Assembly: GCA_002269645.1 (NCBI GenBank)
Contig: NIVC01002542.1
Span: 1 to 41,760 of the forward strand
Direction of reading: 5' to 3'
Length of the DNA stretch: 41,760 nt
Origin: Macrostomum lignano
Lineage: Eukaryota
This document shows positions 2,871 to 41,338 of the stretch, piece by piece. The notes below the pieces were generated by a model. That model ran no database searches. It saw only the letters and a list, made by a program, of their open reading frames with translations, and had not been told where the DNA came from. Made by a program: the position numbers and the translations under genes. Each line of letters begins with the position of its first letter. The stretch's first letter is position 1.

Positions 2871-2947
2871 TCCTTCCCAACAGCCACAGACCTTGAGTCA
2901 CTACAGCTGATTGATAAACATGAGCACATTTTGAGTATGTTTCTTAC

Positions 2948-22370: not shown

Positions 22371-22470
22371 AGACAATAAGTAGCTAGAGCGACAATTTCC
22401 TTAGCTTTATAGTGGCTCCTTTAAATTGGCATGGCGCTTTATACCTTTACATTTGAAATTGGATATCTTG

Positions 22471-22575
22471 AATGTTTGACATGGTGGCTCTTTTATGTTT
22501 GACATAGTGGCTCTTCTATGTTTGACATGGTGGCTCTTTTATGTTTGACATAGTGGCTCTTTTATGTTCGACATG
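22471..22575. repeat. 23-bp satellite (TGTTTGACATGGTGGCTCTTTAA), left part, interrupted by the Maverick
   Basis: Continues in register at 37304 once the element and one TSD copy are removed. Confidence 0.92.
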
Positions 22576-22678
22576 AGTAGTATACGTTTTTTTGACACAA
22601 AGCCGATTTCCTTATGGCGAAATACATAGTAAGTACAGGCCCAAAAAAATGGCAGAGTCCGAAATTTCATGTGCACGC
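22576..22678 (+). repeat. Left TIR of the Maverick
   Basis: First 84 bp match the reverse complement of 37220-37303 perfectly; 4 mismatches in the next 19 bp. Confidence 0.95.
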
Positions 22679-23134
22679 AGTCTGAAATTCCATGTGCACG
22701 CAGTCTGAAATTCCAAGTGCACGCTAAATATCTTTTACGCAACGTGATTATTCAGACGAATTGCATATCCACCTGTCCAAAATACAAGTAACCGATTCTA
22801 GCAATGGTGACACAAACACACTTCAAAGGATTCCATTCAAGACAAATTTACTCCAAAGCTATTCACACATTTCAAGTGTTTTTGAAATATTGAAAACTTG
22901 TGAATATTATCACCCTTTTGAAGAAAGATAGTAAATGATCTATTCTTGAGTGCCTATAGAATTTTTGCACCAACTTGAGCAGATGGTTTACAGATACTAT
23001 GTCAACAACTGCGTCAACATGCTTCTTCTTTATACTATATATATATACGAACACACTGACACAGAAAATATTAAATAACTTAAACCAAGTTTACATTATA
23101 CTACTTGTTCAACTATACTTACATCTTAAGTGAA

Positions 23135-23996
23135 ATGAAGCGATCACGTCAGCAGGAATTGGCCGAGCGCTATGTTAAACAAGGTAAGATAATCACCTAC
23201 TCTAGTTCAGTTTTCTTTTTTAGATTGACTGTTCGCTATAGTTTAGTTTCTAGATTGATTGTTAGTTCGGTTTCTGTTTAGACCGATCCTCTGTTTGTTC
23301 AGTCTCTAGATTGATTTTCTGCTAGTTCGGTTTCTGTTTAGACTAATACTCTGCTAGTTCAGAATTTCTAGATTGATTGTCTGCTAGTTCGGTTTCTGTT
23401 TAGACTGATTCTCTGCTAGTTCAGTTTCTATATACATTGTATACATGCACCTATACCAAATTTCCCTCATCTTATCCATTATTATAGCATTCAAGAATGG
23501 TTTCTTCACGCGGCCACCTCCAGATCAGTGCAAACGCATTTGCCACGACACCACCACATCCAATTCTGCTGCAAGAGCATCATATTCTACATCTCTCGCC
23601 AGAGTAACCTCGATTCATGTCGAGAGACAGACAACTGAGCTAGATCGCATTTACACAAGAACTGATGTTATTCAGTCAATTAGGCAGCAATCGAACCCAC
23701 GACCAACTGACCAACTGCAGTATGCACCACCACCACCATCACCAACCAGCTACAATGACCCAACAAAGCAAACTTGCAGTAAGCCTACAAGTACCAAACC
23801 AACGACAGCAACTGAAACACCATCATCATCAATTGCTATTTCTACCCAAGTTCAACCGCTGCTAAACTCGCCAATTATTGTACAGAAGGACATCAAGTCT
23901 GTAAAAGTCTCTCAAATGAGCACAGGCTTCTACCAAGTAGAATTACCAAAGACCTGTAATACAACTCAAGTATTTGAATATTGGGACCTATCTTAA
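23135..23996 (+). CDS. Maverick accessory ORF1, spliced (exons 23135-23183 and 23488-23996), 185 aa, function unknown
   Basis: ATG...CAAG/GTAAGA donor and TTATAG acceptor join in phase 1, giving MKRSRQQELAERYVKQAFKNGFF...; central region is Thr/Ser/Pro-rich. Confidence 0.55.
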
Positions 23997-24252
23997 AAAG
24001 ACATTTTTTCTAACTCTTCATAAAATTTTGCCAGCAATGTGTCCAAGTAATTGCTCTTTTAGTATATATCAAACAAGTCTGTAATCAATAATATAATCTC
24101 TATAAATTCATTATTCTAAAAAATTCTTTCAATTTTATTCGCCATTTATTGAAATTATTTAATTCAATATAAAGTCAATATCTTGTACAGTCATCATTAA
24201 ACAAAAATTATTAATCCATGCAAATAATTTTTTTTTCATACGTTTCTTTAGC

Positions 24253-24935
24253 CATGGTCTGGCTTTTGCCTCAACAGTATGATTTAGCTGTGGTCCAGCT
24301 TTTGCCTCAACAGTATGATTTAGCTGTGGTCCAGCTTTTGCCTCAACAGTTTTTAGCCGTGGTCCGGCTTTTTTGCCTCAGCAGTATGATTTAGCTGTGG
24401 TCTAGCTTAAAACTGCATCAACAGTGATTTAGCTATAGTCCAGGCTTAACTACCTCAACGATGATTTAGCTATAGTCAAGGCTAAACTGTCTCAACAGTA
24501 ATTTTAGCTGTTGTCCAGACTTAACTGCCTCAACAGTGATTTTAGCTGTGGTCCAGGCAACTGTCTCAACAGGGATTTAGCTGTAGCCGATTAGCTTAAC
24601 TGTCCAGTTATTTAGCTGTGAGCCAAGCAGCAGCACCCGTCTCAACAGTGAGAATTAGCTATGGTCAGCTTTACCTCAACTGTGATTTGGCTGCTGTGGT
24701 CTAGCATAACTGACTCAACAGTAATTTTAGCTGTAGTCGTCCAGCTTAACCACCCGTCCAGTTTTATAACCATGGTCCAGCTTAACCACCGTCTCAATGT
24801 ACAGCGATTTAGTCGTGGTCCAGCTTAACCGTCTCAACGTACAGTGATTTAGCCATGGGTCTAGTAGCAATTAACCGTATCAATAGTGATTTAGCCGTGG
24901 TCCAGCTTAACTGTCTCAACACAGTAATTTAGCTT
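24253..24935. repeat. Degenerate ~35-bp tandem repeat inside the Maverick (CTCAACAGTGATTTAGCTGTGGTCCAGCTTAACTG-like)
   Basis: Recurring TTTAGCTGTGGTCCAGCTT and CTCAACAG motifs, about 18 units. Confidence 0.8.
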
Positions 24936-25644
24936 AGTCCAAACAGCATTTGTGTGTCAACTGCACTGACTGCATGCGGTTATAGCAGCGGCAGTCATTA
25001 TAGTCCCAACAAGCTGCGCGTCGCAGCATGATAGTGTAACTCTATATAGCTTCTGCTCAATATAGGACTGCAAAAGCTGAGTTACAACTATACCTTTTTC
25101 TGTTTGAAAAGTAACACTCTATATATAGGTTACTCAAGCAATCTCTTGTCACCGTGCGAGCTAAAAAATTCCAACATGCAAGCAAAACTTTCAATAAATT
25201 AATTTCATAGCACCGCGTGCAGCTTATTTTTACTCTAAAATCCAAGATTGCTAATTTTTCAAGTCGCAAAATATTTTAATTACATTCTACTTGAGAACAA
25301 AACCAATCTAATGAAGCAGCAACCAGCAGTCTTCTTATTAAACGCTTGCCATCGTGTTACTCTTGCAAATTTATAACTAGTGTGCCTAAGATTCATTAAT
25401 TTTATTGTATAAAATATCAACCTACATTTGCGTAAAATTAGACCTAATCATGCAACCCACCCTAGAAACTTATGCCACCTTTGGCACGCAACAATGTCTT
25501 AATCAGCACGCAACAATTAAATTTGTTTACTAGTTCACAAACAGCATGCAAAGCTTGCTATAAATACAAGACCCGAAATGGTCAATTTTTCATGAGCTCA
25601 ATCATTACAGCAAAAGAAATACTATATTCAATTGCTTGTAAGAC

Positions 25645-26843
25645 ATGGCAGCTTGCATCAAGACGGAGTCAATTGTACGCTCCGACTCGAGTCCGATTTT
25701 TTACGTTGGAGAGCAGTCTACAACCACGACTGGTTCGTCCTGCCAGTTTCGATCTATTGCGTGGAAACCATCAATCGAGTGTACAAAATGGTACCCAATT
25801 ATATTGCAAACCAAGGCTCCAATGGAGCTTTTTCGTGGAATCGCAGAAAGGCCAGAGCTCGATCATCCGTCTTGCAGACACGACTCTCGCGACGCAGTAA
25901 GTGTCCAATTTCATCCAGACAGCTGCGATAAGGAACTCTTCCACTCTCTCCGGTGAGCACCATATTAAATTTATACAATTAATTTTAGGAAACTATATTC
26001 ATAATTTATATAATGTTTTGCAGTCAAGTCGAAAAAGGTCTATCGGTCAAGTTGAACGAGATTCAAGATGCTCGACCCTTGGCACGACTAACAAAACCAG
26101 CTCATCAGCATGCTAACGACGTCCTCGAGTTTGTGCCTCAACAATGGCTGGCTATAAAGCCTGCTTACCCTTGTGCCACAATCAGGATCAGCAACGATCA
26201 TCCACACGGGAAGGAGGTGTCCATTTCCGATTTCAAAGGTGTCAGCGGTACCTACCAAATGACAGTGCAAGCAACGAGCTTGTATTGTCCAAAAGGCTGC
26301 CTCGTCTGGCGCATTACATTCGCTGTGCGCTCTCTGACACTCATAGAATCTTCCGACAACATGTTGCAGCGCCTCGACATGTTCAAGGGAGTGCTTGCAC
26401 ACCTACCCGCGACCAAGTCAGCAATTAGAAGCAGGAGTCCGTCCCCAACATCTACCTGTGAGCAAGAAGAAGCAAATGAACAAAGCCTGCAGAATTCAAG
26501 CCAGGTGACACCTGCCAAGTCACCTGCAAAGCGTCGGTCTACCACCACCGTATCGAAGAAGTCGACTACATCGAATGCAGCGCCAGCCTCTATTGAACCG
26601 CCGCCTAAAAAGCAAGTTCGAAAACGCAGCGGTGCAAAACAGCAAAACAATTCTGCCGAAGCTGGTGCAGATGGCACAGACTGGGTGGAGGCTCCACCAG
26701 CAAAGATCTTGGTGAGTACACCTGCCTCTGGAACCAGGGTAGCGTCCAAGGAGACAGCATTTTTAAAGCGTGCTGCTGCGGACGCTACTACAGCTAGCGT
26801 GTCTTCATCGGACGACTCGTACAGCAGCTCTGATGATGAGTAA
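25645..26843 (+). CDS. Maverick accessory ORF2, spliced (exons 25645-25952 and 26024-26843), 375 aa; possible OB-fold ssDNA-binding protein
   Basis: A 71-nt GTGAG...TTTTGCAG intron fuses two ORF-track ORFs in frame (…HSLR-QVEK…). Low-complexity basic linker and acidic C-terminal tail. The SSB call is a pattern-based inference. Confidence 0.6.
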
Positions 26844-27053
26844 CAAAATTTTTGACTAATTTTATCCAAGTTTTAACTAACTTATTCCACTATATTTATC
26901 AAATTTTTGGCTAGGGAAATATTATTTTTTAGGGAAAAGCTCAAAACATTTTTTGCTACTCCTTGTACGCTAACCAGGTTTTGTAATTTAATATTAGAAT
27001 TTACGATAGTATAGTCATGTTTAACTTTTCTTATTATTTATTTTCCGTTTTAG

Positions 27054-27611
27054 CGACTTGTCCTATTAATAGTTACTGCGAGTCTGAAGCTGCACCCGTT
27101 TGAAAAATTTGATTTAAAGCAGACCAAACAGAAGCTACAGACCAGAAACCGGTTTTGCAAACTATTCCTAAGCCGACCAACAATGCTAAAGACAATTTAT
27201 TCAAATGCTAAAATCCAACTTTATCCAGCAGGAAAACTAACTATATATGGCTGTAAATCAAATTCTCAGATAGTCTCAGTTTTACGATTTATCAACGACA
27301 CTATTAATTGTGTAGATTTTGATTCAGTAAAAATTCAGAGCAGTACCTATGTCGGCTTTATTGGTCATCTTTGGCCAAAATTCGGTTTCTCTAGTCTAAA
27401 AAGATATGCAGGCTACTATTCGAATTATCTGGTTGGATACGATGCAGAAAATTTCCCACAAGCAGTTTCTGTTAGATCAGCATCAAAACCAAGGCTTTTT
27501 TGTAACATATTTTTTTCGAAAAAGTTTGTTATTATGGGCGTTCAAAACACTCATGAATTGAATAATATTCTTAACCATGTCAAGGATTTTTTAATCTCTG
27601 TTAATAACTAA
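27054..27611 (+). CDS. TATA-binding-protein (TBP)-fold protein, both repeats; 5' exon not located
   Basis: The frame is open from the TTTTAG acceptor at 27053, 43 codons before the first ATG. Motifs align with TBP: LIVTASL..FDL, KIQLYPAGKLTIYGCKS, VKIQS, YDAENFP, KPRLFCNIFFSKKFVIMG. Confidence 0.75.
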   Translation, partial: RLVLLIVTASLKLHPFEKFDLKQTKQKLQTRNRFCKLFLSRPTMLKTIYSNAKIQLYPAGKLTIYGCKSNSQIVSVLRFINDTINCVDFDSVKIQSSTYVGFIGHLWPKFGFSSLKRYAGYYSNYLVGYDAENFPQAVSVRSASKPRLFCNIFFSKKFVIMGVQNTHELNNILNHVKDFLISVNN

Positions 27612-27834
27612 ACTTAACAAGTAAACAATTGCTGTCAAATCGCAGTTGCGATGCATTCTTTTACAAACATTTTGTCTTTTTTTATTTATTTACCAATTGT
27701 TTTCTCTAATAGTAAACGTGTCAGCTATACCTATAACTAACCAAATCATCATTTTTCTTACAGCCGCAAATGACAAACCGGATCATCTATTAATATTATG
27801 CTCGATACGCTCGTTGTCGAGCTAGGTGCACACA

Positions 27835-28548
27835 ATGCCGCGTGCACAATGCCAAATCTGCAGAAAAAAGTTCAGTAATCAAGCCGAGCTGCATGCTCAC
27901 TCGCATGGTGCTTGTTTTTCACCGCAACGATTACTGACCGGATCGCTGCAAAACCTGATCGAAAACCCACCAGATGGGTGGTCCATCGCTTTGCGCGAGT
28001 CAGCTCATCGTGGTCGGGTAAATTTTGTCGAATTTACTCCCACTCTTGAACAACAAGGCAACAGCTCTGGCGAGTTACTTCCTGGCGAGTTGATTGCGTC
28101 TTTAAGAGAACCAATATTTAAAATATTGGAAAAAATTGGCTCACCCAGTTTATTAATAAGAGTCTGCTTTCACTTGAAAGTGACACTATTTCGACCGAAA
28201 ACAGCAGCAGACGACAACGATGGCTCGAGCAGCGAAGAGATCATTTCGGTCTATTTTAATACCAACATTGCGACAATATCATTTGATGAGACGATTACAA
28301 ACAGTGACATGCTGTTATCTCCCGAGGCCTACAATGACTGGTTCGCACGCGTTATTAATCAGTTGTTAATAAAAATTGACAATTTTCAATCTCGAGGTAG
28401 TAATTGGCAATATAGAGCAATCGAGCAGCTAGACTTGATGCTCTGCGTTTATCGCAAAAGCCATGCAAGCACACTGTCAACAAATACGTCCCACGGTGGT
28501 GTGGGGGCGGGCGGCGGCAGTGGTGGTGGTGGCGGCGGTGGTGGTGGT

Positions 28549-28580
<32 letters not shown>

Positions 28581-28911
28581 GCGCGGGGAGTCCGGTCCAG
28601 TCCGGTCCGGTCCAGTCCGGTCCGGTCTGGTTAAGCAGCAATCGTTTAAAGTTCCAGTCTCAATCGGTCGCAAAGCTGGAGCAGTACTGCTTCTAAAGCC
28701 GCACAGAGCAGTTTAAAGCATCAAGACTATTTAAGAGTCTTACACAAGCGACAACTTGTGTTTTCGCGCATACAGTCCATTCGTTCTCGAAAACAGAAAG
28801 TTTTTTTTGATGCAACAAAGAAAACTTGCACTAAGCTTCTTCGATACGAAGCGATCCTGGACAAGTTCAATTAATTCGCTACCCTTTGGACACTGGCACT
28901 TGGCTAATTAA
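27835..28911 (+). pseudogene. polB: Truncated N-terminal part of a Polinton protein-primed DNA polymerase B (C2H2 finger plus terminal-protein-like region); exonuclease and polymerase domains absent
   Basis: CQICRKKF...HAH finger; IDNFQSRGSNWQYRAIEQLDL matches the GSGW motif of Polinton pPolB N-termini. After two in-frame stops (28714, 28732) the frame continues with the expected DNLCF. No catalytic PolB motifs or long ORF anywhere between the TIRs. Confidence 0.65.
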
Positions 28912-29203
28912 TTAACAATATGCTCTGATCTCTTTTGTTGTACAAAGTAATAGCATGCTATAGAAGACTGTAACCCATCATTAATTTTTTCATTGATCAT
29001 TATTTACAATAAATAAATGATACCGGCATTCGTTTAAATTATAATTTTAGCACTTTTTTGTGTTTAATTATTTGAAAAAGTATATTTTTTATAGTTAGAT
29101 TCTCAAGACTAAGCTTGTGTTTGTAGTAGACGTAAATGTAGTGCTATCGTTCATGTTTCAAGAAAAAAAACTTTTTTTTAAACTTTCAGCTACAAGAATC
29201 GAC

Positions 29204-29686
29204 ATGAATCCCGAGCAGCAGCAGCAACAACAACTAACTGATCGTAAGCTTTTAGTTGAACGTCTATACGATTCGGCAACGATTCCGACCCGAAAAACTG
29301 TCGGGTCGATCGGGTATGATCTTTGCGCTGGCGTCGATGGTACCATTCCGGCCTACGAGTCCCGGAGTGTGCGAACCGGACTCAAAATTCGCTTACCGCC
29401 TGGTACCTATGGCAGGATAGCGGGACGTTCCAGCATGGCTCTGCACAGCTTATTTGTTGGCGGTGGCGTAATCGACCCCGACTATACTGGTGAAATCTGT
29501 ATAGTCTTGTTTAATTACAGTCCGGAAGACTTTGAGTACTATGCCGGGCTCAGTATTGCACAACTGGTTCTGGAGCAGGCCGTGCTTGCTTCAGTCTATG
29601 TGACTGAAGCAGACAATTCGATTCGGATGATTGAGCCGCCGACCAAGCGGCGCGGCTTTGGCGGCTTTGGCAGCACTGGCCAATAA
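29204..29686 (+). CDS. dut: Trimeric dUTPase
   Basis: All five motifs present: GYDL, GRSS, GGVIDPDYTGEI, IAQLV, RRGFGGFGSTG. Likely ATG at 29204. Confidence 0.95.
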   Translation: MNPEQQQQQQLTDRKLLVERLYDSATIPTRKTVGSIGYDLCAGVDGTIPAYESRSVRTGLKIRLPPGTYGRIAGRSSMALHSLFVGGGVIDPDYTGEICIVLFNYSPEDFEYYAGLSIAQLVLEQAVLASVYVTEADNSIRMIEPPTKRRGFGGFGSTGQ

Positions 29687-29777
29687 GTATAATAATAATA
29701 ATAAACTGATTTTTTTCTTTGGTGATTGGTGCACTATGCGAGAGCTTTGTAAATACTATAAGCAATTTTAAAAATTT

Positions 29778-30221
29778 ATGCCTAAAATATATGTTGTAAA
29801 AATGTCTCCAGCGAAAGATCGAGGTTTTAAAAAGAAAAAGAAGAGCATTCGTAAAAAGAAGAAATCTATTAGAAAGATTAATAAAAAGCAACAAGGTTAT
29901 GGTGTCGTAAATTGGTTAATTAATCATTTACCATTTGAAGCACATTTACCCGGCGGATATCAGTTTTGTGGTCCAGGTACGCAACTGCAAGCTAGGCTAG
30001 CAAAAGGACAACGAGGAATTAATCGGCTTGACAATTTGTGCATGCTTCACGACGTGGCCTATGATAAAAATTCTGACGTGCAAGAGAGGTTAAAAGCTGA
30101 TAAGCTATTAGAATCTGGTGCACGAGAGATTGCCCACGATCCGTCTACTGGTTGGAAAGAAAAACTAGCTGCGAAGTTGGTTACCAAGGTTATGCAAGTT
30201 AAGCAACGCTTTGGTGCTTGA
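29778..30221 (+). CDS. Parvovirus-type phospholipase A2 domain protein (adintovirus PLA2X-like) with a basic N-terminus
   Basis: YQFCGPG Ca-loop and NRLDNLCMLHDVAYD catalytic HD; Lys-rich leader ending in QQGYG. Confidence 0.85.
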   Translation: MPKIYVVKMSPAKDRGFKKKKKSIRKKKKSIRKINKKQQGYGVVNWLINHLPFEAHLPGGYQFCGPGTQLQARLAKGQRGINRLDNLCMLHDVAYDKNSDVQERLKADKLLESGAREIAHDPSTGWKEKLAAKLVTKVMQVKQRFGA

Positions 30222-30223
30222 AA

Positions 30224-30913
30224 ATGCAGCAGCCATACAATATGCAACTAGCTCACGATTCTACATTTATTATTGCTGGACCTTCAAACTCGGGTAAAAC
30301 TGAATGGACGTTGCGTTTGTTGACTGAACGAAAAGAATTATTTGATAAAAAACCGTGCCGTCTTGTTTGGTGCCATGGATCAAGTTTGAAACCAGACGAT
30401 CAACAACGAATTAGAACATGCTGGCAAAAAAGCGGTCTTGACCCTATTGTTTTTGTACCCGAATTCACACCACAGATGATTAATCGTTTTTTACCACACG
30501 ATTTGGTTGTTGTTGACGACTTGCAAAGCGAGATTGCTAAGTTGCCAGAATTTACTAGTATGTTTACAAAGCATGCGCATCATATCCCTTTGACTTGTCT
30601 GTACCTTTGTCAAGGTCTTTTTAACAAGTCTGATCCAGAAGCACGCATGCGAAGTTTATCAGCTAGTTATATTTGTCTAACTCGTAGTGTGCGCGATCGA
30701 ACCACAGTTGAACATCTCGGTCGACAAATGTATCCGCGTAATAGTAGGTTTCTAGTGAATGTGTATGAAGACGCAACAAATAACAAACCTTTTTCATATT
30801 TATTCATTGACCTGCGGCAAGTGACACCAGATTTTTTACGATTGAGAACAGGAATATTTTCTGGTGATGAACAAGTTGTCTATACTCGTGAATGTGATGC
30901 AAAGTTTGTGTAA
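30224..30913 (+). CDS. A32/FtsK-like genome-packaging ATPase
   Basis: Walker A GPSNSGKT, Walker B LVVVDD, HH...Q sensor region, YLFIDL...LRLRTGIF C-terminus. Confidence 0.92.
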   Translation: MQQPYNMQLAHDSTFIIAGPSNSGKTEWTLRLLTERKELFDKKPCRLVWCHGSSLKPDDQQRIRTCWQKSGLDPIVFVPEFTPQMINRFLPHDLVVVDDLQSEIAKLPEFTSMFTKHAHHIPLTCLYLCQGLFNKSDPEARMRSLSASYICLTRSVRDRTTVEHLGRQMYPRNSRFLVNVYEDATNNKPFSYLFIDLRQVTPDFLRLRTGIFSGDEQVVYTRECDAKFV

Positions 30914-30970
30914 TATTATTATAAGCAAATTATAAACTGTTGTCAATATTAGTTTGTGTTTTATTTCAAA

Positions 30971-31960
30971 ATGAGTTTTTACGTTTTTTTGCCGTCAAAC
31001 GATATCAGTTACGAAACCAACTCGCCTAATGAATTTCGAGTGCGACTAACTGAACCAATAAATTTATTGAACGGATTCTTCGAGGTTGCACTAGTTGAAT
31101 TACTGTGCCATGGAGCAATTACGACGCCAAATGCTCATCGTGAGCGTCGATTTGAAGTTCCATATTTTGCGGACATTGACTCAATAATACGATTAAAGAA
31201 AAACTATTGGGGTCGTGTTTGGGCAGAGGCAGACTTGGATGCTTACGTTTCCTGGCAACCGTCTGGTACAGATGAAAAATTTGCCTGGCTTTTACGAAAT
31301 TCAGGCGAAAAAACTATTGGATTAGAACTACCAGTTACATTTATGGACGCTTTCAAATTTGACTCTTGGAAGAAACTTTCTGGACTTGTCTCGGAAAAAT
31401 TATCAAAACCTGCCGCTGGTAGTGTACAACCACCGGATGGTTCATACTTGGATTTGATAAAAAGTCTCGACAATACTCTAGCGCTAGTACCTGAGAACTA
31501 TTATGTTTTTTATTGTGTTCTATCGCCTGGTGAAGCTATACGACTTGTTTCGCATGGAGACTATCTTCGAAAAACGGAAGGAGAAGTGTACATCAAAGTA
31601 CACCAATATTGGTTGAGAAATCGTGTTTGGCGCATTAACAAAACCTACTTGGATGCTGTGCTACCTTCTCCGATGCCTAGTAAAACGGTTTACATGTACT
31701 GTTACACAGATATAATCGAGTATCAAGCAGTGGGAAGTACATCAGTACCGTTGCTTCGAGTTGTGGAACTCCAACAAAAGAAAAACGGAGAACTTATACG
31801 CGATAGCAGTGCATTGCAAACACCCTACTACTTGAAAACAAATCGACAACAAATTCACGAGATTTCGATTCGACTATCGGACCAGCGCGGAAAACCGTTT
31901 AATTTTGATCCGGGAGCACACGTTGTTGTCGTACTGCATTTTAAACATAGGTCGGACTAA
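30971..31960 (+). CDS. Minor capsid protein (penton, single jelly-roll)
   Basis: MSFYVFLPSN start; C-terminal YTDII..Q.VG....PLLRVV and IRLSDQRG.PF...VVVLHF pattern of Polinton mCP. Confidence 0.85.
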   Translation: MSFYVFLPSNDISYETNSPNEFRVRLTEPINLLNGFFEVALVELLCHGAITTPNAHRERRFEVPYFADIDSIIRLKKNYWGRVWAEADLDAYVSWQPSGTDEKFAWLLRNSGEKTIGLELPVTFMDAFKFDSWKKLSGLVSEKLSKPAAGSVQPPDGSYLDLIKSLDNTLALVPENYYVFYCVLSPGEAIRLVSHGDYLRKTEGEVYIKVHQYWLRNRVWRINKTYLDAVLPSPMPSKTVYMYCYTDIIEYQAVGSTSVPLLRVVELQQKKNGELIRDSSALQTPYYLKTNRQQIHEISIRLSDQRGKPFNFDPGAHVVVVLHFKHRSD

Positions 31961-32016
31961 TTTATAAGCAAAGATTAATTGTGTAATAGAAAATTTTGTG
32001 AATTTGTTTTGTAAGA

Positions 32017-32445
32017 ATGAGCGAACTAACAGAAAAAGGAAAACAAAATGCTCGCTCATTGTGTCAGTGTGCTTTTTTACTACAAATTGTTTATCGGCTA
32101 AAGCATCCAAAGCAGAGAAAAAGTTTTTTACAAACACTTTCAGAGTCGGAGATACGATGTCTAGTAGACTTTCTGTTTAATATTATTAGTGGACGTATTA
32201 AAATTAGTAACTGTAACAAAAGACGACTTGAGAAGCATCGCAGATATATACGCCAGCTTTTGGAACAGAAGACTCCAATTACTGCAAAAAGGAAAATACT
32301 TGTCCAACACGGAGGATTTTTACCTTTTTTGGCTCCAATTATTGCCGCTCTACCTGCTATAAGCACTGCGCTTGGGATAACGTCTGGAGTAGTTGGTACC
32401 GCCGCGGGAGCAGCGAATTTAATACGATCAATTCAACGAAAGTAG
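32017..32445 (+). CDS. Conserved Maverick virion precursor-like protein ending in a GG-FLPFLAPII hydrophobic/amphipathic peptide
   Basis: KRKILVQHGGFLPFLAPIIAAL motif; lies within the morphogenesis cluster. Confidence 0.75.
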   Translation: MSELTEKGKQNARSLCQCAFLLQIVYRLKHPKQRKSFLQTLSESEIRCLVDFLFNIISGRIKISNCNKRRLEKHRRYIRQLLEQKTPITAKRKILVQHGGFLPFLAPIIAALPAISTALGITSGVVGTAAGAANLIRSIQRK

Positions 32446-32455
32446 TAGGAATATA

Positions 32456-33145
32456 ATGCGAACTAACGAGAGTAGTAGTTTTCAACGAATGTATCTAGTA
32501 CCTGAATCTGTGTATCAATCTGCATGTCAAGGTGCAGAGCAAGGATCGTCACCAACTGCTGAGACACCTCGAAAAACTGAAGTTTTAGACGCACCGCAAG
32601 ATGCTCTGGCAAAAAATATGGTGGAAATGAGAGACCAAATGGATAACTTGGACAAGGAAATGGAAAAGGAGCCAAATTACACAGCTCAATTGAAACGAAG
32701 CAGATTGGAAGACAAACTTTTAAAATTGCGCAAAGTCTATCGCACTGGAGACGAGGACAATCTGTCACTTGTTCGCAAAGGGACTACTGTAAGAAGTTCA
32801 TATGCCAGCGAATCAAGGGAAATTCCTAAAGTTTTTTTACCACGTTTCGAAGCTCTCGCTCAAAACCTATTTTCGGACATGGACAAGAATGCAGAACCAA
32901 TGCTGGCTAATTTGACTGATGCCGAGATACAAGATCTCATGGAATATGTTGTTCGAGACAGACCGCTTAAGCGACACGAGACTCAACCGCCTAGTGGACT
33001 AAAAACATTTTTAGACTTTCTTCGAAAACGTGGAATCGCAGCAAACCAAATCGGGCGTCATGTACGAAACGAGCTAATGTCTGCTCCAAAAACTGTTGCA
33101 AAGGAGGATCTTAGTCTGTTTGAAAATTATCAAACACTGAATTAA
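32456..33145 (+). CDS. Maverick ORF of unknown function, 229 aa
   Basis: Clean ATG ORF tightly packed between core genes. The RMYLVP start, coiled-coil LDKEM segment and PPSGLKTFLDFL motif resemble a recurrent Polinton ORF (from memory, not searched). Confidence 0.7.
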   Translation: MRTNESSSFQRMYLVPESVYQSACQGAEQGSSPTAETPRKTEVLDAPQDALAKNMVEMRDQMDNLDKEMEKEPNYTAQLKRSRLEDKLLKLRKVYRTGDEDNLSLVRKGTTVRSSYASESREIPKVFLPRFEALAQNLFSDMDKNAEPMLANLTDAEIQDLMEYVVRDRPLKRHETQPPSGLKTFLDFLRKRGIAANQIGRHVRNELMSAPKTVAKEDLSLFENYQTLN

Positions 33146-33257
33146 GTTGTTTTAAAATTACAGATTACGTTTTAACAAAATTGATTCGAGCACTATAAGC
33201 TTTTTAAAAAGGTTAATTTTTTGTTTATGAAAAATATATAGTTTAATAAGACAAACC

Positions 33258-33446
33258 ATGTCATCTATCTTCCAAAAACTTTTGATTCGTCTCTGTGAGT
33301 TTTTTTGCATAAAATCTGAATGTGTGCCGTTTCTGGGAAAGGAGCACAACGAGGATACTGACGGAGATTCGATCGAGGCTTCGTTCTTTTGTTGCAACTG
33401 TCAAACGACTAGCATCAATCTAACTGATGATGAAGCGAGTGCGTAA
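33258..33446 (+). CDS. Possible small Cys-rich ORF, 62 aa
   Basis: ACCATGT start; fills the gap before the integrase and overlaps its start, like other junctions in the cluster. Confidence 0.35.
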   Translation: MSSIFQKLLIRLCEFFCIKSECVPFLGKEHNEDTDGDSIEASFFCCNCQTTSINLTDDEASA

Positions 33447-34587
33447 GGAAATTGAAGAATTTTTGACGGATGCTTTTTTTAACTTGAACAGGCCTACTTC
33501 ATTTAGTGGTAACAAGACTATACTTGTTCGTGAAGTACGTAAAAAGTTTCCACAGATTACGAACAAAGTTGCAAAGCGCGAAGTTGATAATTGGGTGCGA
33601 TCAACAAATGAGCATCATTTATTTCGAAAAACACGACGAAACTTTCCAACTCCAAAAATTAGTGTGCCACCAGTTGCAAAGTTTCAGTTTCAAATCGATT
33701 TGGCAGATTTACCTCAATACAAGACGGAAAATCGAGGTTATCGTTACATACTTGTTCTTATCGACTGTTTTACTAGAGTTGTACGACTAAGACCATTGCG
33801 TACAAAGAAGCCTTCAGAAGTTAGTCAAGTATTACTAGAGATTTTTCGAAGTGGTTTTAAGCCTGTTTATTTACAAGGTGATGCTGGTATGGAGTTTCTC
33901 GGAAGAGCTACACGTCAAATGCTGAAACAGGAAGGAGTTCGATTTTTTGTTAGCCAAAGCAATTACAAGGCAAGCATGGCTGAACGATTTATCCGCTCGT
34001 TAAAGGAACGTCTATTACGATACTTTCGAGCAAAAAATTTACCTCGATGGTTTGACATTTTACCGCAATTGGAAGATAATTTCAACTCTAGTCCTCATCG
34101 ATCCTTGAGTGGAGAAACACCAAAACGGGTAGAGACAGACCCGCATTTACAAGGAATTTTGTGGGACAAAATGTTTGCGAAGTCGTACACTAAAAAGAAT
34201 GAGAATAAATTTAAAGTTGGTGATTGGGTTAGAATTACACGACGTCGAGGAACATTTGAAAAAGGATACACTACGACTTGGAGTAATTCAAAATATCGCA
34301 TTCATCGTGTACACTTGACAGACCCGCCAATGTACGAATTAGTGGACCCTGAAGATGGATTTGAAGTGCTGAAAGGAAGGTTTAACCAAGCGGAACTAAT
34401 GTTGGTAAACGAGACAGATGAAACACCTAATGAAATTGAAAAAGTTATTGAAACTGATCGAGCGAAAAATGGAAGTCGTCTGTATCTAGTAAAATGGAAA
34501 GGTATGCCAATCTCAAGAAGTCAGTGGTTAAACGAAAATGATCTTGACGCAAAGACTGCTAAACTATTTTCTAAAGTGTATAAGTAA
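33427..34587 (+). CDS. int: Retroviral-like (rve, DDE) integrase with C-terminal chromodomain
   Basis: FQIDLADL (D), LQGDAGMEF (D), MAERFIRSLK (E); FKVGDWVRI...FEKGY; chromodomain IEKVI...YLVKWKG...QW. Confidence 0.96.
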   Translation: MMKRVRKEIEEFLTDAFFNLNRPTSFSGNKTILVREVRKKFPQITNKVAKREVDNWVRSTNEHHLFRKTRRNFPTPKISVPPVAKFQFQIDLADLPQYKTENRGYRYILVLIDCFTRVVRLRPLRTKKPSEVSQVLLEIFRSGFKPVYLQGDAGMEFLGRATRQMLKQEGVRFFVSQSNYKASMAERFIRSLKERLLRYFRAKNLPRWFDILPQLEDNFNSSPHRSLSGETPKRVETDPHLQGILWDKMFAKSYTKKNENKFKVGDWVRITRRRGTFEKGYTTTWSNSKYRIHRVHLTDPPMYELVDPEDGFEVLKGRFNQAELMLVNETDETPNEIEKVIETDRAKNGSRLYLVKWKGMPISRSQWLNENDLDAKTAKLFSKVYK

Positions 34588-34595
34588 CACATGAA

Positions 34596-35087
34596 TTGGG
34601 ATTGCATGACGAAGAGAAGACTGTTGAAATGGATCCTATTTTTGCTTTTTATTCTGGTCCGAATAGATCTGCTGAAGGTGGAGGTGGATATGGCATTCCT
34701 GTTTACGAAGGTTACGGTTTTTTGTCAAATTTGGCGGACAGATTGGTGTATCCTGTACTACGCAACGCAAAGAAAGATTTCTTGGATCGTGGTCTGGAGT
34801 ATTTGAAAAGTGCGACAGCAAAAATTGGTATGGGTCGGAAGCGTCACTTGGACACAGAATCGAGCGAAGAGATGTTTAATACAACTGCAGTTTCGAGACC
34901 AAAGCGAAGGAAAAGAACCAGTGGAGTGGCTATAAGCTTAGGAAAGAAGAAACGGCAAAAGAAACGACGAACAAGACAGTGTGGAAAGGGACGCGTGAAC
35001 AAAAGAAAACGCAAGAAGACCGGTGGTATAGGAAAACGTCGAACTGCTACTGCAAGCAAGAAACTTTTTAGTCTGTTTGAAAAGTAG
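34596..35087 (+). CDS. Basic core-like protein (adenovirus pVII-like role inferred)
   Basis: Arg/Lys-rich C-terminal half; GGGG/GYG/GxG motifs; lies immediately upstream of MCP. Confidence 0.7.
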   Translation: MGLHDEEKTVEMDPIFAFYSGPNRSAEGGGGYGIPVYEGYGFLSNLADRLVYPVLRNAKKDFLDRGLEYLKSATAKIGMGRKRHLDTESSEEMFNTTAVSRPKRRKRTSGVAISLGKKKRQKKRRTRQCGKGRVNKRKRKKTGGIGKRRTATASKKLFSLFEK

Positions 35088-35088
35088 C

Positions 35089-36411
35089 ATGAACCATTTG
35101 CTTGGACCTGATATTGCTGCTCTTAAAAGTGAATTGTCGCTATTTGATCAAAGTCCTGTTCAGTTTAGTGTTTTGGATAATCGATATACTAACATTCAAC
35201 CGCAACATGGTATTACAAAAGGATCACCTATCGAATTTGAAGTTGTGCCTGCAGGCGATTTGTATTTGGATCTACAAGAAACTGTGCTCACGGTATGCTT
35301 CAGCGTTAGTGATAGTGAAGGTGAACCTATAGATGCAACGAAAAATTTTGTTTGTTTGAATAATTTGGTTATTGGAACATTGTTTGAGGACGTTCAATTT
35401 ACTATTGGCGATACTGTAGTTGAAGGTGGTAGTTTTATGTATCCATACAAGGCTATGCTTCTTACATTACTGGAATATGGACATACAGCTCAGAAGGCTG
35501 GTTTACTGCCGTGGGGGTTTTACAAGGATACAGCTGGTAAAATGAATGCAACAAGTGAAAACGATGGACGAACAAAGAGGCAGGCGCTCATTGCTAACAA
35601 TAGGCGGTGCACTGTATCGGGGCCGTTATTCTTGGATTTGTTTCGTCAGCCTCGGTATCTACTATCAAAGACACCACTACGGATCAAGCTCATACCGGCA
35701 AAAAGTAAATTTGTCCTGAGCGGGTCAACATTAGAAGCTGGTGCGGTTTTAAAAGACTATGAGATCAAGTTTTTGCGTGCAGAACTACGATTGCGGTTTG
35801 TTCAACCCTCGCCGAGTGTTATCAGTGCACATGCTCATGGACTTAAAAGTCACAATGCATTATATCCGCACCGAAGTCTAAGCCTTGGTACGTTTACTAT
35901 ACCCCGAGGATCGTCTAGCCATACGCATGAAAATTTGTTTCCTAGTGGGGTACCACGGCTTTTATTGATGGCAATCGTAAGCAACAAGGCATTCAATGGA
36001 AGCATGGACACAAATCCGTTCAACTTTGAGCATGCAAATGTGAGCAGCATTGGTGTGTTTGTGAATGGAGACTCGGTACCATCGCGTCCGCTGCAGACAA
36101 ACTTTGGAGATGATTGTGTGACAGAGTATAATTTTTTGCTACAACAGCTTGGAATCTATCTACAGGGACGAGATATTGGATTTAATATGCTGGATTACGC
36201 CAATGGTTACTCAATTTTTGCATTCAGTCTTGGAAGTGAACCTGGTGTCGGACGGGGAGTGCAACTGTATAAGGAAGGAAATGTAAAACTAGAGTTACGC
36301 TTCAATGCTGCAACTAGTACCGTGTACAACGTCATATTTGGAGGTATATTTGACAAGCAACTGCAACTGACTGAACTTCGCGACATTGTTCCTGGCACAG
36401 TATGGAAGTAA
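35089..36411 (+). CDS. Major capsid protein (double jelly-roll, hexon-like), 440 aa
   Basis: SELSLFD, PIEF...YLDL, YPYKA, LDLFRQPRYL, AFNG....NPFNF and GY.IFAFSL patterns typical of Polinton MCP. Confidence 0.92.
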   Translation: MNHLLGPDIAALKSELSLFDQSPVQFSVLDNRYTNIQPQHGITKGSPIEFEVVPAGDLYLDLQETVLTVCFSVSDSEGEPIDATKNFVCLNNLVIGTLFEDVQFTIGDTVVEGGSFMYPYKAMLLTLLEYGHTAQKAGLLPWGFYKDTAGKMNATSENDGRTKRQALIANNRRCTVSGPLFLDLFRQPRYLLSKTPLRIKLIPAKSKFVLSGSTLEAGAVLKDYEIKFLRAELRLRFVQPSPSVISAHAHGLKSHNALYPHRSLSLGTFTIPRGSSSHTHENLFPSGVPRLLLMAIVSNKAFNGSMDTNPFNFEHANVSSIGVFVNGDSVPSRPLQTNFGDDCVTEYNFLLQQLGIYLQGRDIGFNMLDYANGYSIFAFSLGSEPGVGRGVQLYKEGNVKLELRFNAATSTVYNVIFGGIFDKQLQLTELRDIVPGTVWK

Positions 36412-36965
36412 TTGATTCTATCCTAGATCGTGGTGTAACAGATCGCTTCCTTCGCAATGTTGTATCGAAATTGTGCGCACATTTTTTAAATGTTGTATTT
36501 CTTGGTGTTTTTCCTCAAAACTTTGTTGGTGGACTTAGACGCTTACCTTTAGACGGTAAAGACTATTTTTTTATCGTTAATACTGACGTCTCCAACCTGC
36601 CCGGAAAACATTGGGTATGCGTTTGGGTTTATGGTCATCGAGCAGGTCGCGGTAGCAAACGACTTGGTGAATATTTTGATTCTCTTGGTCTAGTACCATT
36701 GCCAAGAATAGCAAAATGGCTAGGAAAAGAATGTGGAAATTCGAAAAATTGGTGTTATAGTCGCTTTGCTATCCAAGACCCACAGAGTGGAAGTTGTGGA
36801 TTTTGGGTAATTTTTTATATTTTTCATAAGTTGACTACCAGAGGAAACCTAGAGTGTTTTATTCGAAGCGTTTTTAAACGGAATATAATTCGCACTGGTT
36901 CGTTTCGATACTTGTATGCTAAATTACGCAATTTTGTTTTACGAGTGCTGCCTCAATATTTGTAA
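36402..36965 (+). CDS. Adenain-like (Ulp1 family) cysteine maturation protease
   Basis: NTD....PGKHW (His), EYFDSLG (Asp), IQDPQSGSCG (Gln/Cys); start overlaps the MCP stop. Confidence 0.95.
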   Translation: MEVIDSILDRGVTDRFLRNVVSKLCAHFLNVVFLGVFPQNFVGGLRRLPLDGKDYFFIVNTDVSNLPGKHWVCVWVYGHRAGRGSKRLGEYFDSLGLVPLPRIAKWLGKECGNSKNWCYSRFAIQDPQSGSCGFWVIFYIFHKLTTRGNLECFIRSVFKRNIIRTGSFRYLYAKLRNFVLRVLPQYL

Positions 36966-37200
36966 ACTCGCTAATTTGTGCGTCAAATTGTGTTTGTATC
37001 TAGTTGAAATATACAATACTGCTTGAAAAGAAGAATTTAAATGCGTTAAGTTATACGCGAAATAAGCTTTGTGTCAAATTGAATTTTGGTTGGGCTTGTA
37101 ATTAGCTGCATTCATTGCGGATAGAATTTAGGTGGATAGACAGGTGTTTGCGTAAAAGTGATTCAGCTAATTGGTTAATTCATTGCGTAAAAGCTAGTTT

Positions 37201-37303
37201 GCGTGCACGGCAAATTTCAGACTCTGCCATTTTTTTGGGCCTGTACTTACTATGTATTTCGCCATAAGGAAATCGGCTTTGTGTCAAAAAAACGTATACT
37301 ACT
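37201..37303 (-). repeat. Right TIR of the Maverick
   Basis: Reverse complement of 22576-22678; followed by TSD GACATG. Confidence 0.95.
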
Positions 37304-40300
37304 GACATGGTGGCTCTTCTATGTTTGACATGGTGGCTTTTTTAGGTTTGACATGGTGGCTCTTTTATGTTTGACATGTTGACTTTTTTATGTTCGACAC
37401 GGTGGCTCTTTTAGGTTTGAACCGGTGGCTCTTTAATGTTTGACATGGTGGCTCTTTAATGTTCGACATGGTGGCTCTTTTATGTTCGACATGGTGGCTC
37501 TTTAATGTTTGACATGGTGGCCCTTTAATGGTTAACATGGCGGCTCTTTAATTTTCGAAATGGTGGCTCCTTAATTTTCGAAATGGTGGCTGTTTTATGT
37601 TTGACATGGTGGCTCTTTAATGTTCGACATGGTGGCTCTTTAATGTTTGACATGGTGTCTGTTTTATGTTTGATATGGTGGCTCTTTAATGTTCGACATG
37701 GTGGCTCTTTAATGTTTGACATGGTAACTCTTTTATGTTTGATATGGTGGCTCTTTAATGTTCGACATGGTGGCTCTTTAATGTTCGACATGGTGGCTCT
37801 TTAATGTTCGACATGGTGGCTCTTTAATTTTTAACATGGTGACTCTTTTATGTTCGACATGGTGGCTCTTTTATGTTTGACATAGTGGCTCTTCTATGTT
37901 TGACATGGTGGCTCTTTAATGTTTGACATGGTGGCTCTATTATGTTTGACATGGTGGCTCTTCTATGTTTGACATGGTGGCTTTTTTAGGTTTGACATGG
38001 TGGCTCTTTTATGTTTGACATGTTGGCTTTTTAATGTTCGACATGGTGGCTTTTTAATGTTCGACATGGTGGCTCCTTTAGGTTTGAAATGGTGGCTCTT
38101 TAATATTTGACAAGGTGGCTCTTTAATGTTCGACATGGTGGCTCTTTTAGGTTTGAACCGGTGGCTCTTTAATGTTTGACATGGTGTCTGTTTTATGTTT
38201 GACATGGTGGCTCTTTAATGTTCGACATGGTGGCTCTTTAATGTTCGACATGGTGGCTCTTTAATTTTTAACATGGTGACTCTTTTATGTTCGACATGGT
38301 GGCTCCTTAAGGTTTGAAATATTGGCTCTTTAATGTTTAACATGGTGGCTTTTCTATGTTCGACATGGTGGCTTTTCTATGTTCGACATGGTGGCTCTTG
38401 TATGTTCGACATGGTGGCTCTTTTAATGGTCGACATGGTGGCTCTTTAATGTTCTTCATGTTGGCTCTTTTATGTTTGACATGGTGGCTTTTTTATGTTT
38501 GACATGGTGGCTCTTTTATGTTCTACATAGCTGCTCTTTTATGTTCGACATTGTGGCTCTTGTATGTTCGACAGGGTCGCTCTTTTAGGTTTGAAATGGT
38601 GGCTCTTTAATATTTGACAAGGTGGCCTTTAATGTTTAACATGGCGGCTCTTAAATTTTCGAAATGGTGGCTGTTTTATATTTGACATGGTGGCTCTTTA
38701 ATGTTCGACATGGTGGCTCTTTAATGTTCTTAATGGTGTCTGTTTTATGTTTGACATGGTTGCTCTTTTATGTTCGACATGGTGGCTCTTTAATTTTTAA
38801 CATGGTAACTCTTTTATGTTTGATATGGTGGCTCTTTTATGTTCGACATGGTGGCTCTTGTATGTTCGACATGGTGGCTTCTTTAGGTTTGAAATGGTGG
38901 CTCTTTAATATTTGACAAGGTGGCTCTTTAATGTTCGACATGGTGGCTCTTTTAGGTTTGAAATGGTGGCTCTTTAATATTTGACAAGGTGGCTCTTTAA
39001 TGTTTGACATGGTGGCTCTTTAATGTTCGACATGGTGGCTCTTTAATGTTTGACATGGTAACTCTTTTATGTTTGATATGGTGGCTCTTTTATGTTCGAC
39101 ATGGTGGCTCTTTAATGTTTGACATGGTGGCTCTTTAATGTTTGACATGGTAACTCTTTTATGTTTGATATGGTGGCTCTTTAATGTTCGACATGGTGGC
39201 TCTTGTATGTTCGACATGGTGGCTTCTTTAGGTTTGAAATGGTGGCTCTTTAATATTTGACAAGGTGGCTCTTTAATGTTTGACATGGTGGCTCTTTAAT
39301 GTTTGACATGGTGGCTCTTTTAGGTTTGAAATGGTGGCTTTTAATGTTTGACAATGTGGCTCTTTAATGTTTGACATGGTGGCTTTTTAATGTTCGACAT
39401 GGTGGCTCTTTTAGGTTTGAACCGGTGGCTCTTTAATGTTTGACATGGTGGCTCTTTAATGTTTGACATGGTGTCTGTTTTATGTTTGACATGGTGGCTC
39501 TTTAATGTTCGACATGGTGGCTCTTTTAGGTTTGAACGGTGGCTCTTTAATGTTTGACATGGTGGCTCTTTAATGTTTGAAATGGTGGCTCTTTAATGTT
39601 CGACATGGTGGCTCTTTAATTTTTAACATGGTGACTCTTTTATGTTCGACATGGTGGCTCCTTTAGGTTTGAAATATTGGCTCTTTAATGTTTAACATGG
39701 TGGCTTTTCTATGTTCGACATGGTGGCTTTTCTATGTTCGACATGGTGGCTCTTGTATGTTCGACATGGTGGCTCTTTTATGTTCGACATGGTGGCTCTT
39801 GTATGTTCGACAGGGTCGCTCTTTTAGGTTTGAAATGGTGGCTCTTTAATATTTGACAAGGTGGCCCTTTAATGTTTAACATAGCGGCTCTTAAATTTTT
39901 GAAATGGTGGCTCCTTAATTTTCGAAATGGTGGCTGTTTTATATTTGACATGGTGGCTCTTTAATGTTCTTAATGGTGTCTGTTTTATGTTTGACATGGT
40001 GGCTCTTTAATTTTTAACATGGTGGCTCTTTTAGGTTTGAAACGGTGGCTCTTTAATGTTTGACATGGTGACTCTTTAATGTTTGACATGGTGGCTTTTC
40101 TATGTTCGACATGGTGGCTCTTGTATGTTCGACATGGTGGCTTCTTTAGGTTTGAAATGGTGGCTCTTTAATATTTGACAAGGTGGCTCTTTAATGTTCG
40201 ACATGGTGGCTCTTTAATGTTTGACATGGTGGCTCTTTAATGTTCGACATGGTGGCTCTTTAATGTTTGACATGGTAACTCTTTTATGTTTAATATGGTG

Positions 40301-40725
40301 GCTCTTTTATGTTCGACATGGTGGCTCTTTAATGTTTGACATGGTGGCTATTTAATGTTTGACATGGTAACTATTTTAGGTTTGAAATGGTGGGTCTTTA
40401 ATGCTTGACAATGTGGCTCTTTAATGTTTGACATGGTAACTCTTTTATGTTTGATATGGTGGCTCTTTTATGTTCGACATGGTGGCTCTTTAATTTTCGA
40501 CATGGTGGCTCCTTTAGGTTTGAAATGGTGGCTCTTTAATGTTTGACATGGTGGCTCTTCTATGTTCGACATGGTGGCTCTTCTATGTTCGACATGGTGG
40601 CTCTTTAATTTTTAACATGGTAACTCTTTTATGTTCGATATGGTGGCTCTTTTATGTTCGACATGGTGGTTCTTTAATGTTCGACATGGTGGCTCCTTTA
40701 GGTTTGACATGGTGGCTCTTCTATT
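37304..40725. repeat. 23-bp satellite array (TGTTTGACATGGTGGCTCTTTAA), about 148 copies
   Basis: Read directly. The 23-aa periodicity (3 units) explains the MSNIKEPPC ORFs. Confidence 0.97.
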
Positions 40726-40744: not shown

Positions 40745-41338
40745 CAGTTTTTTAGTTTTTAAGGTGTTTTAATAAAAAATTATTTTGCGCTTCTAAGACT
40801 CGAACCCAGGTCGCTACATTAGCATTCCAGTCTGTTCGCATCAGGGCTATCTCTTTTCAATTGGAGAACATGAATTGTGGCCCTTATAATTCAATTCTTA
40901 CAGCAAGTCAATTGGAGTAAAAAGTTATGACATAATCAATTCTCAGTCAGCCAGTATCAGTCTCACTTCGAGTTAGCAATATGGTTACGCAATTTCAATC
41001 AAGTCGTGTGTGCATTTCTTCGGCACTGTTTTCAACTTGTTGTGATGCAATCTTTATCAGAATTGAAATTCAGTCAGTCAGTTTTTTTCTCTAGCATTCT
41101 TACAATGCATTTCAAGTCGAAAATTTTGCTTGACCTTTGCAAAAAGCGTGTTTTTCGAATATTTAATCCCTTTAACATTGAGCAATTTCTTAGCCAAGAT
41201 GCATGTACTGTGCCAGGAAAATTTCTGATCGAATGATGCAAGTTTGAAGAAAATCGGTTTGAGCCGTTTTTTCTGAAATCAATCGCATACCCATATACAT
41301 ACATACATACAGACAACTCATTTTTAGTATATAGGATT
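40745..41338 (+). mobile_element. Dispersed-repeat tail, copy 2 (Helitron/Helentron non-autonomous-like 3' region)
   Basis: Homologous to 20966-21656; ends AAGTTTGAAGAAAATCGG...(TACA)n-CAGACAACTCATTTTTAGTATATAGGATT. Confidence 0.55.

Follow-up and report, generated by a model that had tools for sequence, protein, structure and literature searches.

The 41,760-nucleotide window analyzed here (contig NIVC01002542.1, positions 1 to 41,760 of the forward strand, Macrostomum lignano assembly GCA_002269645.1) contains a Maverick element of 14,728 bp at 22576-37303. The element has the ends, integrase and virion genes of an adintovirus-type Maverick, and the gene for its protein-primed DNA polymerase B (pPolB) is internally deleted. 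We read it as a young, helper-dependent, non-autonomous Maverick of a family that borrows its polymerase in trans, a reading to which we give a probability of about 0.62.

Element ends and the deleted polymerase gene

The element starts with AGTAGT and finishes with ACTACT, i.e., (AGT)2/(ACT)2. Its terminal inverted repeats (TIRs) are perfect for 84 bp, with the earliest mismatch at position 85 (96% over 104 bp), and it interrupts a satellite of 23-bp units.

22472..22575, unstranded: satellite, left portion, 4.5 units of 23 bp; the last 6 bp are one copy of the target site duplication (TSD), 22570-22575
22576..22659, + strand: left TIR, 84 bp perfect, starts AGTAGT
22656..22724, + strand: three subterminal 23-bp repeats, with one related copy near the right terminus
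37220..37303, - strand: right TIR, terminates ACTACT
37304..40720, unstranded: satellite, right portion, ~149 units of 23 bp, opening with TSD copy 37304-37309

The hexamer GACATG stands on both flanks and also belongs to the repeated 23-bp unit of the satellite, occurring 89 times in the right array, so that matching flank hexamers alone were weak proof of a TSD and a register test was needed. Excising the element together with k bases restored the 23-bp periodicity at k = 6 only (21 of 23 matches; 23 other values of k gave at most 9 of 23), and GACATG is thus a genuine 6-bp target duplication, the length that, together with the (AGT)2//(ACT)2 end motif, is given for Mavericks in the part of PMC8097293 available to us. 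The original prediction, drawn from the sequence alone, had described intact ends, 84-bp perfect TIRs, a GACATG duplication and a satellite that rejoins in register, all of which the register test bears out; the span it gave, 22570-37309, counts both TSD copies.

It had further proposed that insertion into satellite may shelter the element from selection. The left satellite flank measures only 104 bp, which places the insertion at the edge of the array, and of the 27,032 bases that the window has beyond the element, 13,373 (49%) are tandem repeat. The 23-bp satellite was far commoner than the element in all four sequencing runs examined (X1, X10, X15 and X19, from four studies, aligned as contigs to 22380-37420; X1 is perhaps the source sample), and one contig carries a second flank, described below. 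On these grounds shelter by the satellite is unsupported, and chance explains the insertion site, the satellite being a large target.

Two remnants of the pPolB gene remain:

27835..28716, + strand: 5' part of pPolB as a separate open reading frame (ORF), with zinc finger, terminal-protein (TP) domain, Gly linker and the initial vOTU residues
28710..28911, + strand: C-terminal stub of pPolB in two frames, switching near 28,800

The first aligned to residues 1-298 of P0132 (PAA65278.1, a 1,422-aa pPolB; 37%, E 1e-54) and also matched residues 2-172 of P0123. Within it, 28588-28710 was identical to residues 6-46 of P0124 (PAA91590.1) at 36 of 41 positions (88%). The segment 28692-28902 aligned to P0132 residues 1352-1421, and the stub also matched residues 921-991 of P0122 (PAA84795.1). 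Motifs A, B and C of P0132 (residues 960, 1158 and 1259) all fall within the unaligned gap, and a vOTU-type cysteine motif that lies a few residues past the end of the P0124 match is absent from the window. A pPolB profile built from six full-length relatives (1,259 positions) was searched against every stop-to-stop frame in the window (1,632 in total) and matched only at profile positions 12-180 and 1187-1256. Because both ends align and nothing between them does, we place at ~28,710 a deletion of ~1,060 codons (~3.2 kb) that removed the vOTU catalytic site, the exonuclease and the palm. No polymerase or other replicase ORF occurs in any frame of the element. Judged by its sequence, this copy as assembled is therefore non-autonomous and incapable of self-replication, and the completeness implied by the original prediction, which had overlooked the deletion, does not stand. 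A 'DNLCF' stretch near 28,750, considered as a broken vOTU, was rejected since homology in other frames identifies the region as the polymerase C-terminus.

The TP ORF stops two codons past the junction. The ten best fold matches of its predicted model (pLDDT 66) were Y-family polymerases, several of them on the little-finger/PAD domain, although these matches were middling (Z 4.8-6.5, rmsd 3.0-4.5, 98-114 aligned). The model agrees with the comparison of polinton terminal proteins to Y-family polymerase folds in the accessible portion of PMC11161782, which also describes TP as naturally cleaved from the vOTU domain; the deletion may thus leave something near a ready-cut TP. The GGC and GTCCG microsatellites at 28496-28631 are coding and specify a GPVRS repeat, also found in P0124, as a low-complexity TP-vOTU linker.

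The closest named relatives of the polymerase remnants are M. lignano proteins, and the annotations of this species include complete or near-complete pPolBs of at least two families. P0124, P0132 and P0122 differ from the element in keeping the vOTU, exonuclease and palm motifs together with an endonuclease VII domain; P0124 shares the Gly/GPVRS linker with the element, P0132 aligns with both remaining ends, and the records of all three carry no Maverick annotation. P0124 differs from the element at 5 of 41 residues, compared with 99.9% identity for most contigs of the sequencing runs, and so belongs to another subfamily. P0120 seemed to be a relative in which a separate internal deletion had occurred, but its accession adjoins that of a mid-polymerase fragment on an equally long contig, so it may be a gene-model artifact and was not used as support; P0120 and P0130 are adjacent M. 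lignano accessions that together resemble one polymerase split by gene prediction. Macrostomum is a laboratory animal amenable to RNAi, and M. lignano has a hidden polyploidy. Orthopolintovirales insertions are noted in Rhabditophora in the portion of the literature available to us. With such polymerases annotated in the same species, supply in trans would be the simplest mechanism here.

Virion genes, left-arm genes and the TATAAG motif

The right arm carries ten genes on the + strand:

29153..29686, + strand: dUTPase (Pfam E 1.5e-29; motifs)
29778..30221, + strand: PLA2-like virion protein with a basic N-terminus (Phospholip_A2_4 E 3e-9; TATAAG at 29757)
30224..30913, + strand: packaging ATPase (Walker motifs; relatives in 10 of 57 Maverick-like loci)
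30971..31960, + strand: putative minor capsid protein (mCP; homology to ORFs in the same position; relatives in 15 of 57 loci; TATAAG at 30920)
32017..32445, + strand: small basic protein with an adenovirus pX-like C-terminus (Adeno_PX E 2e-6; TATAAG at 31963)
32456..33145, + strand: 229-aa ORF (TATAAG at 32358)
33427..34587, + strand: RVE integrase (INT) with chromodomain (Pfam rve, Chromo; D-D-E; TATAAG at 33194)
34629..35087, + strand: 152-aa basic ORF (TATAAG at 34579)
35089..36411, + strand: major capsid protein (MCP; 113 relatives, including 'F54H12.2-like' proteins of fishes; TATAAG at 34931)
36402..36965, + strand: adenain-like cysteine protease (PRO; H/D/C motifs; relatives in 32 of 57 loci; Pfam E 0.038; TATAAG at 36268)

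INT, MCP, mCP, ATPase, PRO, PLA2 and dUTPase are all uninterrupted ORFs. Motifs lie in their expected places in INT (D91/D152/E186), ATPase (Walker A and B), the protease (H/D/C), PLA2 and dUTPase. Pfam matches above cut-off were obtained for rve, chromo, dUTPase, Phospholip_A2_4 and Adeno_PX, while Peptidase_C5 reached only E 0.038. These ORFs, motifs and domains confirm what had been predicted for the seven genes, and the ends, TSD, integrase and virion genes likewise agree with the proposed Maverick/adintovirus-like identity. The virion genes, to judge from their open frames, may still be expressed.

The MCP aligned over its full length with its closest relatives (67% identity, 100% of the query), and we take the name 'F54H12.2-like' to denote a Maverick capsid; a profile search of PDB gave the MCP no match, and IMG/VR yielded no relative of it. 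The comparison set for the right arm consisted of 57 capsid-related Maverick-like loci, mostly short and distant (24-38% capsid identity). Ten related frames of the pX-like gene were found among them, and its position would make it GasderminX-like; the 152-aa basic ORF, with relatives in 0 of the 57 loci, would by position be cupiennin-like. The 229-aa ORF had no match in a family search of Pfam, PHROG and the 57 loci.

A repeat finder grouped three 20-mers that contain TATAAGC. TATAAG occurs in the element eight times on the + strand and once on the - strand, and all eight + strand sites lie 21-233 nt upstream of eight different right-arm genes, namely PLA2, mCP, the pX-like gene, ORF229, INT, ORF152, MCP and PRO. 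None lies in the left arm or ahead of ATPase or dUTPase. TATAAG ranked top among 1,170 hexamers (p 1e-5, ~0.012 after correction), its positional excess was stable across windows of 60-400 nt (p <=6e-4), and TATAAGC was observed 6 times in the element against 1.0 expected. The motif might be a late promoter recognized by the TBP-like protein that the element itself encodes, described below; the host TBP could equally read TATAAG. A pairing of a TBP gene with TATAAG in polintons was not found in the literature searched, a search outside which lie figures, supplements (Starrett Figs 5, S1, S2) and Repbase. Separately, TGTTTGAAAA occurs in three copies on the + strand (25101, 33117 and 35074; 0.09 expected), one of them 15 nt ahead of the MCP start.

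The left arm, upstream of the polymerase remnants, holds spliced or probably spliced genes:

23135..23996, + strand: spliced gene, exons 23135-23183 and 23488-23996 (185 aa, S/T/P-rich)
24247..24933, unstranded: internal non-coding repeats of 36-75 bp
25645..26843, + strand: gene resembling single-strand binding (SSB) proteins, probably with exons 25645-25952 and 26024-26843; acidic/basic tail
27054..27611, + strand: TBP-like ORF, 185 aa stop to stop, starting at a splice-acceptor-like site

The intron of the first gene (23184-23487, GT..AG) contains a 32/62-bp tandem repeat, and its joint fuses a 16-codon exon in frame to the ORF 23445-23996, whose exon 2 has no Pfam match. The joint was seen in contigs of X10 and X19, which we guess to be RNA runs, and in none of X1 or X15; no other observation speaks as clearly for transcription of some copy. 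In the SSB-like gene, a predicted 71-nt GT..AG intron joins ORF 25645 to ORF 26013-26843 with matching phases, and one X19 contig terminates at 25952, the base directly before the predicted donor. By Atlas features, exon 2 was close (0.93) to Nucleocytoviricota clusters of DUF2738, and also to DUF5871 and Pox_I3, families that we take to be single-strand binding proteins; the match is a lead only (209 of 256 features; 10% of members carry the family, and agreement between families was poor). Exon 1 alone had no Atlas match, and the SSB-like ORF had none in Pfam or PHROG.

The TBP-like ORF matched Pfam TBP in two stretches (E 2.2e-7, 31 bits against a cut-off of 22.9) and an archaeal TBP (PDB 1mp9; E 3e-4) with both C-lobe phenylalanines aligned. 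Foldseek gave no match to a query that was a poor single-sequence model (pLDDT 46), and a 5' exon was looked for and not found. Within the SSB-like ORF, a perfect GTGAGT donor at 26712 is phase-compatible with the acceptor that precedes 27054, so that an SSB-TBP splice form is possible. Among the 57 capsid-related loci and nine polymerase-related ones, mostly short and distant, there were no TBP-, SSB-, dUTPase- or TP-like relatives (a TBP match at E 0.004, in a minus frame of the capsid-related loci, was regarded as chance), and IMG/VR yielded neither relatives of the TBP-like and SSB-like ORFs nor the exact terminal 23-mer. An Rfam search gave no match at gathering scores. Ahead of the TP ORF, an X19 contig begins at the acceptor-like site 27763-27764 with 23 unaligned letters, which would derive from either an exon farther upstream or a spliced leader.

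Outside the element, 21032-21593 and 40790-41283 are two AT-rich repeat copies (70-87% identical) with a CA/CATA microsatellite at the end, and the 18-, 23- and 24-bp satellites seem embedded in such dispersed AT-rich units, possibly Helitron/HINE-like. An inverted repeat at 11003-11376/11981-12358 (378 bp, 97% identity) with a 151-bp tandem repeat between its arms is possibly MITE-like or a foldback. Positions 1-17000 hold ~12 unrelated minisatellites (units of 16-151 bp) in DNA with a GC content of 41-56%, and every frame of at least 200 aa there is repeat-derived.

Copies in sequencing runs and competing explanations

In 20 of 24 listed runs, from seven studies of one organism, 69-98% of sampled words of 27000-36900 were present, so the sequence is no private artifact. 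All four aligned runs covered 30 of 30 bins. Letter differences over the eight longest contigs per run were 8 in 11,042 for X1, 3 in 10,811 for X10, 5 in 6,061 for X15 and 66 in 8,355 for X19. The longest contigs of X1, X10 and X15 thus differ from the window by 0.03-0.08%, which, with the perfect TIRs and TSD, sustains the predicted youth of the insertion.

The form that the window shows at its 28,800 frame break accounted for ~78% of depth in X1, 84% in X15, 100% in X10 and 49% in X19. Since this form holds most of the depth in three of the runs, most copies share the dead polymerase end, and probably most carry the same 28,710 deletion. Minor variants at ~5-25% of depth in the DNA-like runs suggest several copies, which pooled animals could mimic. 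A minority of contigs differ at the frame break, at neighboring places and within the TIR, a pattern suggestive of one or more sister subfamilies. In one X10 contig, position 22576 adjoins another flank, at least 255 letters long; the 30 letters of it that are listed do not occur in the window. Gene model P0114 consists of three pieces 99-100% identical to the element followed by Ty3/gypsy domains absent from the window, with no polymerase domain listed. Further variants, each seen in single contigs, are a TIR that has diverged, a joint with a strand switch, and internal deletions (22619-22643, 22680/36977, 24434-25536, 26294-26479, 26529-26663), which may be a sister subfamily or further deletion derivatives. 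Two candidates were set aside: an X10 contig at 28773-29978, which starts downstream of the junction and so is no test for polymerase-less copies, and P0119, a chance repeat match.

The sequence shows that an ancestor lost ~3.2 kb from within pPolB; left over are a stand-alone TP, both TIRs, the integrase, dUTPase, an open virion module and the genes resembling SSB and TBP, and at least one gene is spliced. Under the helper-dependent reading, the deleted form likely multiplied with its own ends and integrase, using polymerase supplied in trans by co-resident Mavericks with complete pPolB, and the present copy likely integrated with a 6-bp duplication into satellite that was simply a large target. 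An extension of this scheme, which in our judgment falls somewhat short of even odds, has early, host-spliced left-arm genes, including the TBP-like factor, switch on the right-arm virion genes through TATAAG(C), so that the element may contribute capsids and be packaged as a defective satellite of its helper. We are doubtful of the strongest version, a spreading, packaged and transmissible 'satellite' Maverick that borrows polymerase only, with its own TP, SSB, integrase and capsids and a two-stage TBP-TATAAG(C) program.

Several observations weigh against these proposals. TATAAG was noticed post hoc and four of the eight sites lie inside upstream ORFs; the 57 capsid-related loci show no upstream enrichment (16 of 69, p 0.21), and a weak excess also appears in nine polymerase-related viral contigs with no detected TBP relative (11 of 57, p 0.04). 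X10 and X19 are RNA runs by guess, none of the runs containing the element being recorded as RNA. The TP ORF differences were 9 non-synonymous and 6 synonymous (among 40 of 273 rows), which indicates no strong constraint. Contig depth is no copy count and pooled animals could imitate multiple copies, the second flank is a single contig, and none of the records listed bridges 28,710, the repeat at 28503-28636 being skipped.

That unbridged junction, with its position ~75 bp from microsatellites, leaves room for a deletion private to this copy, whether it arose after insertion or as an assembly error near the GGC/GTCCG repeats, in a family otherwise autonomous. A close full-length relative exists in P0124, and most vertebrate Maverick copies are described as defective in the available part of PMC8097293. 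We nevertheless find a private deletion unlikely: the stub frame break of the window holds most of the depth in three runs, P0124 with its 5 of 41 differing residues stands in another subfamily than the 99.9% identical contigs, and P0114, more weakly, lacks a polymerase domain. Near-identical contigs across studies would also fit a single inherited locus, the more so as depth cannot count copies, and the element could then have gained copies passively as the host duplicated or became polyploid, or be one polymorphic locus in pooled animals, with no current helper. The contig with another flank at the exact terminus, the minor variants in the DNA-like runs and the internal deletion variants in single contigs make this improbable.

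Retention by the host would explain why TP persists in an ORF of its own that closes two codons past the junction, and the X19 contig with 23 unaligned letters hints at a processed transcript. TP would then inhibit related Mavericks in a dominant manner, or the locus would feed small-RNA defense, with the capsid genes open through youth alone. The perfect TIRs, TSD and open integrase speak for recent mobility rather than old capture, and TP shows no sign of strong constraint; we hold this to be very improbable. Least credible is the complete, self-replicating endogenous adintovirus sheltered by satellite, which the intact ends, TSD, integrase and virion genes had suggested; with no replicase in any frame it is refuted for the copy as assembled, and half of the flanks is tandem repeat.

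Perfect ends and open capsid genes, then, need not mean an autonomous provirus. The helper-dependent reading makes the family and its likely helpers in Macrostomum a setting in which to examine particle production and movement of polB-less Mavericks, and the TBP-like gene with a one-per-gene upstream motif would, if the promoter proposal is true, be a first handle on the timing of Maverick virion genes.

Relation to known elements

The element has the Polinton/Maverick features of (AGT)2//(ACT)2 TIRs, a 6-bp TSD, an RVE D-D-E integrase, a packaging ATPase and an adenovirus-type protease. Its capsid proteins have full-length sequence relatives in Maverick-like loci and are putatively assigned as jelly-roll proteins. 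A complete protein-primed DNA polymerase B, which marks autonomous Mavericks, is missing, and we file the element as a non-autonomous derivative. Adintoviruses sensu Starrett et al. have a PolB with an N-terminal OTU, which is absent here and present in the close relative P0124. PLA2X marks the Alpha class; here PLA2 and pX lie on separate ORFs, and likeness to the Beta markers GasderminX and Cupiennin is positional only.

With adintoviruses and animal Polintons-Mavericks, as far as described in the available text of PMC8502044 and PMC8097293, the element shares its ends, TIR, 6-bp TSD, RVE integrase, ATPase, adenain, and PLA2-like and pX genes, together with putative hexon- and penton-like proteins. 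The parent pPolB was likewise of the TP-vOTU-exo-palm type, and the element would reach ~18 kb with the gap counted. It departs from the adintoviruses of that portion of PMC8502044 in its internally deleted pPolB, its TBP-like and SSB-like genes and an apparent mixture of Alpha and Beta markers. Its spliced genes contrast with intact vertebrate Mavericks, described in the same two partial sources as intronless for core ORFs; most vertebrate copies are defective by the account in PMC8097293.

Mobile polintons without polB have been reported beside more complete relatives in Pieris and other Lepidoptera, their mechanism of movement being left open in the part of bioRxiv 10.1101/2025.02.07.637071 available to us. 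Those elements resemble ours as TIR-flanked, near-identical copies without polB; there, the loss accompanies LINE or gypsy cargo, whereas here a clean internal deletion keeps TP as its own ORF. The Stylophora polinton and adenoviruses also have a stand-alone TP gene split near the TP/vOTU boundary, although, going by the accessible portion of PMC11161782, they retain a working vOTU-pPolB gene. A TBP gene is named for MELD viruses in a figure legend of PMC8502044, in a section on non-animal data that, as far as available, links no promoter motif to it. TBP and SSB genes also occur in Nucleocytoviricota, to whose clusters the SSB-like ORF was nearest in the Atlas lead. Loss of polB thus has precedent, and the stand-alone TP, the spliced, TBP-like and SSB-like genes and the one-per-gene TATAAG make this element a variant set apart.

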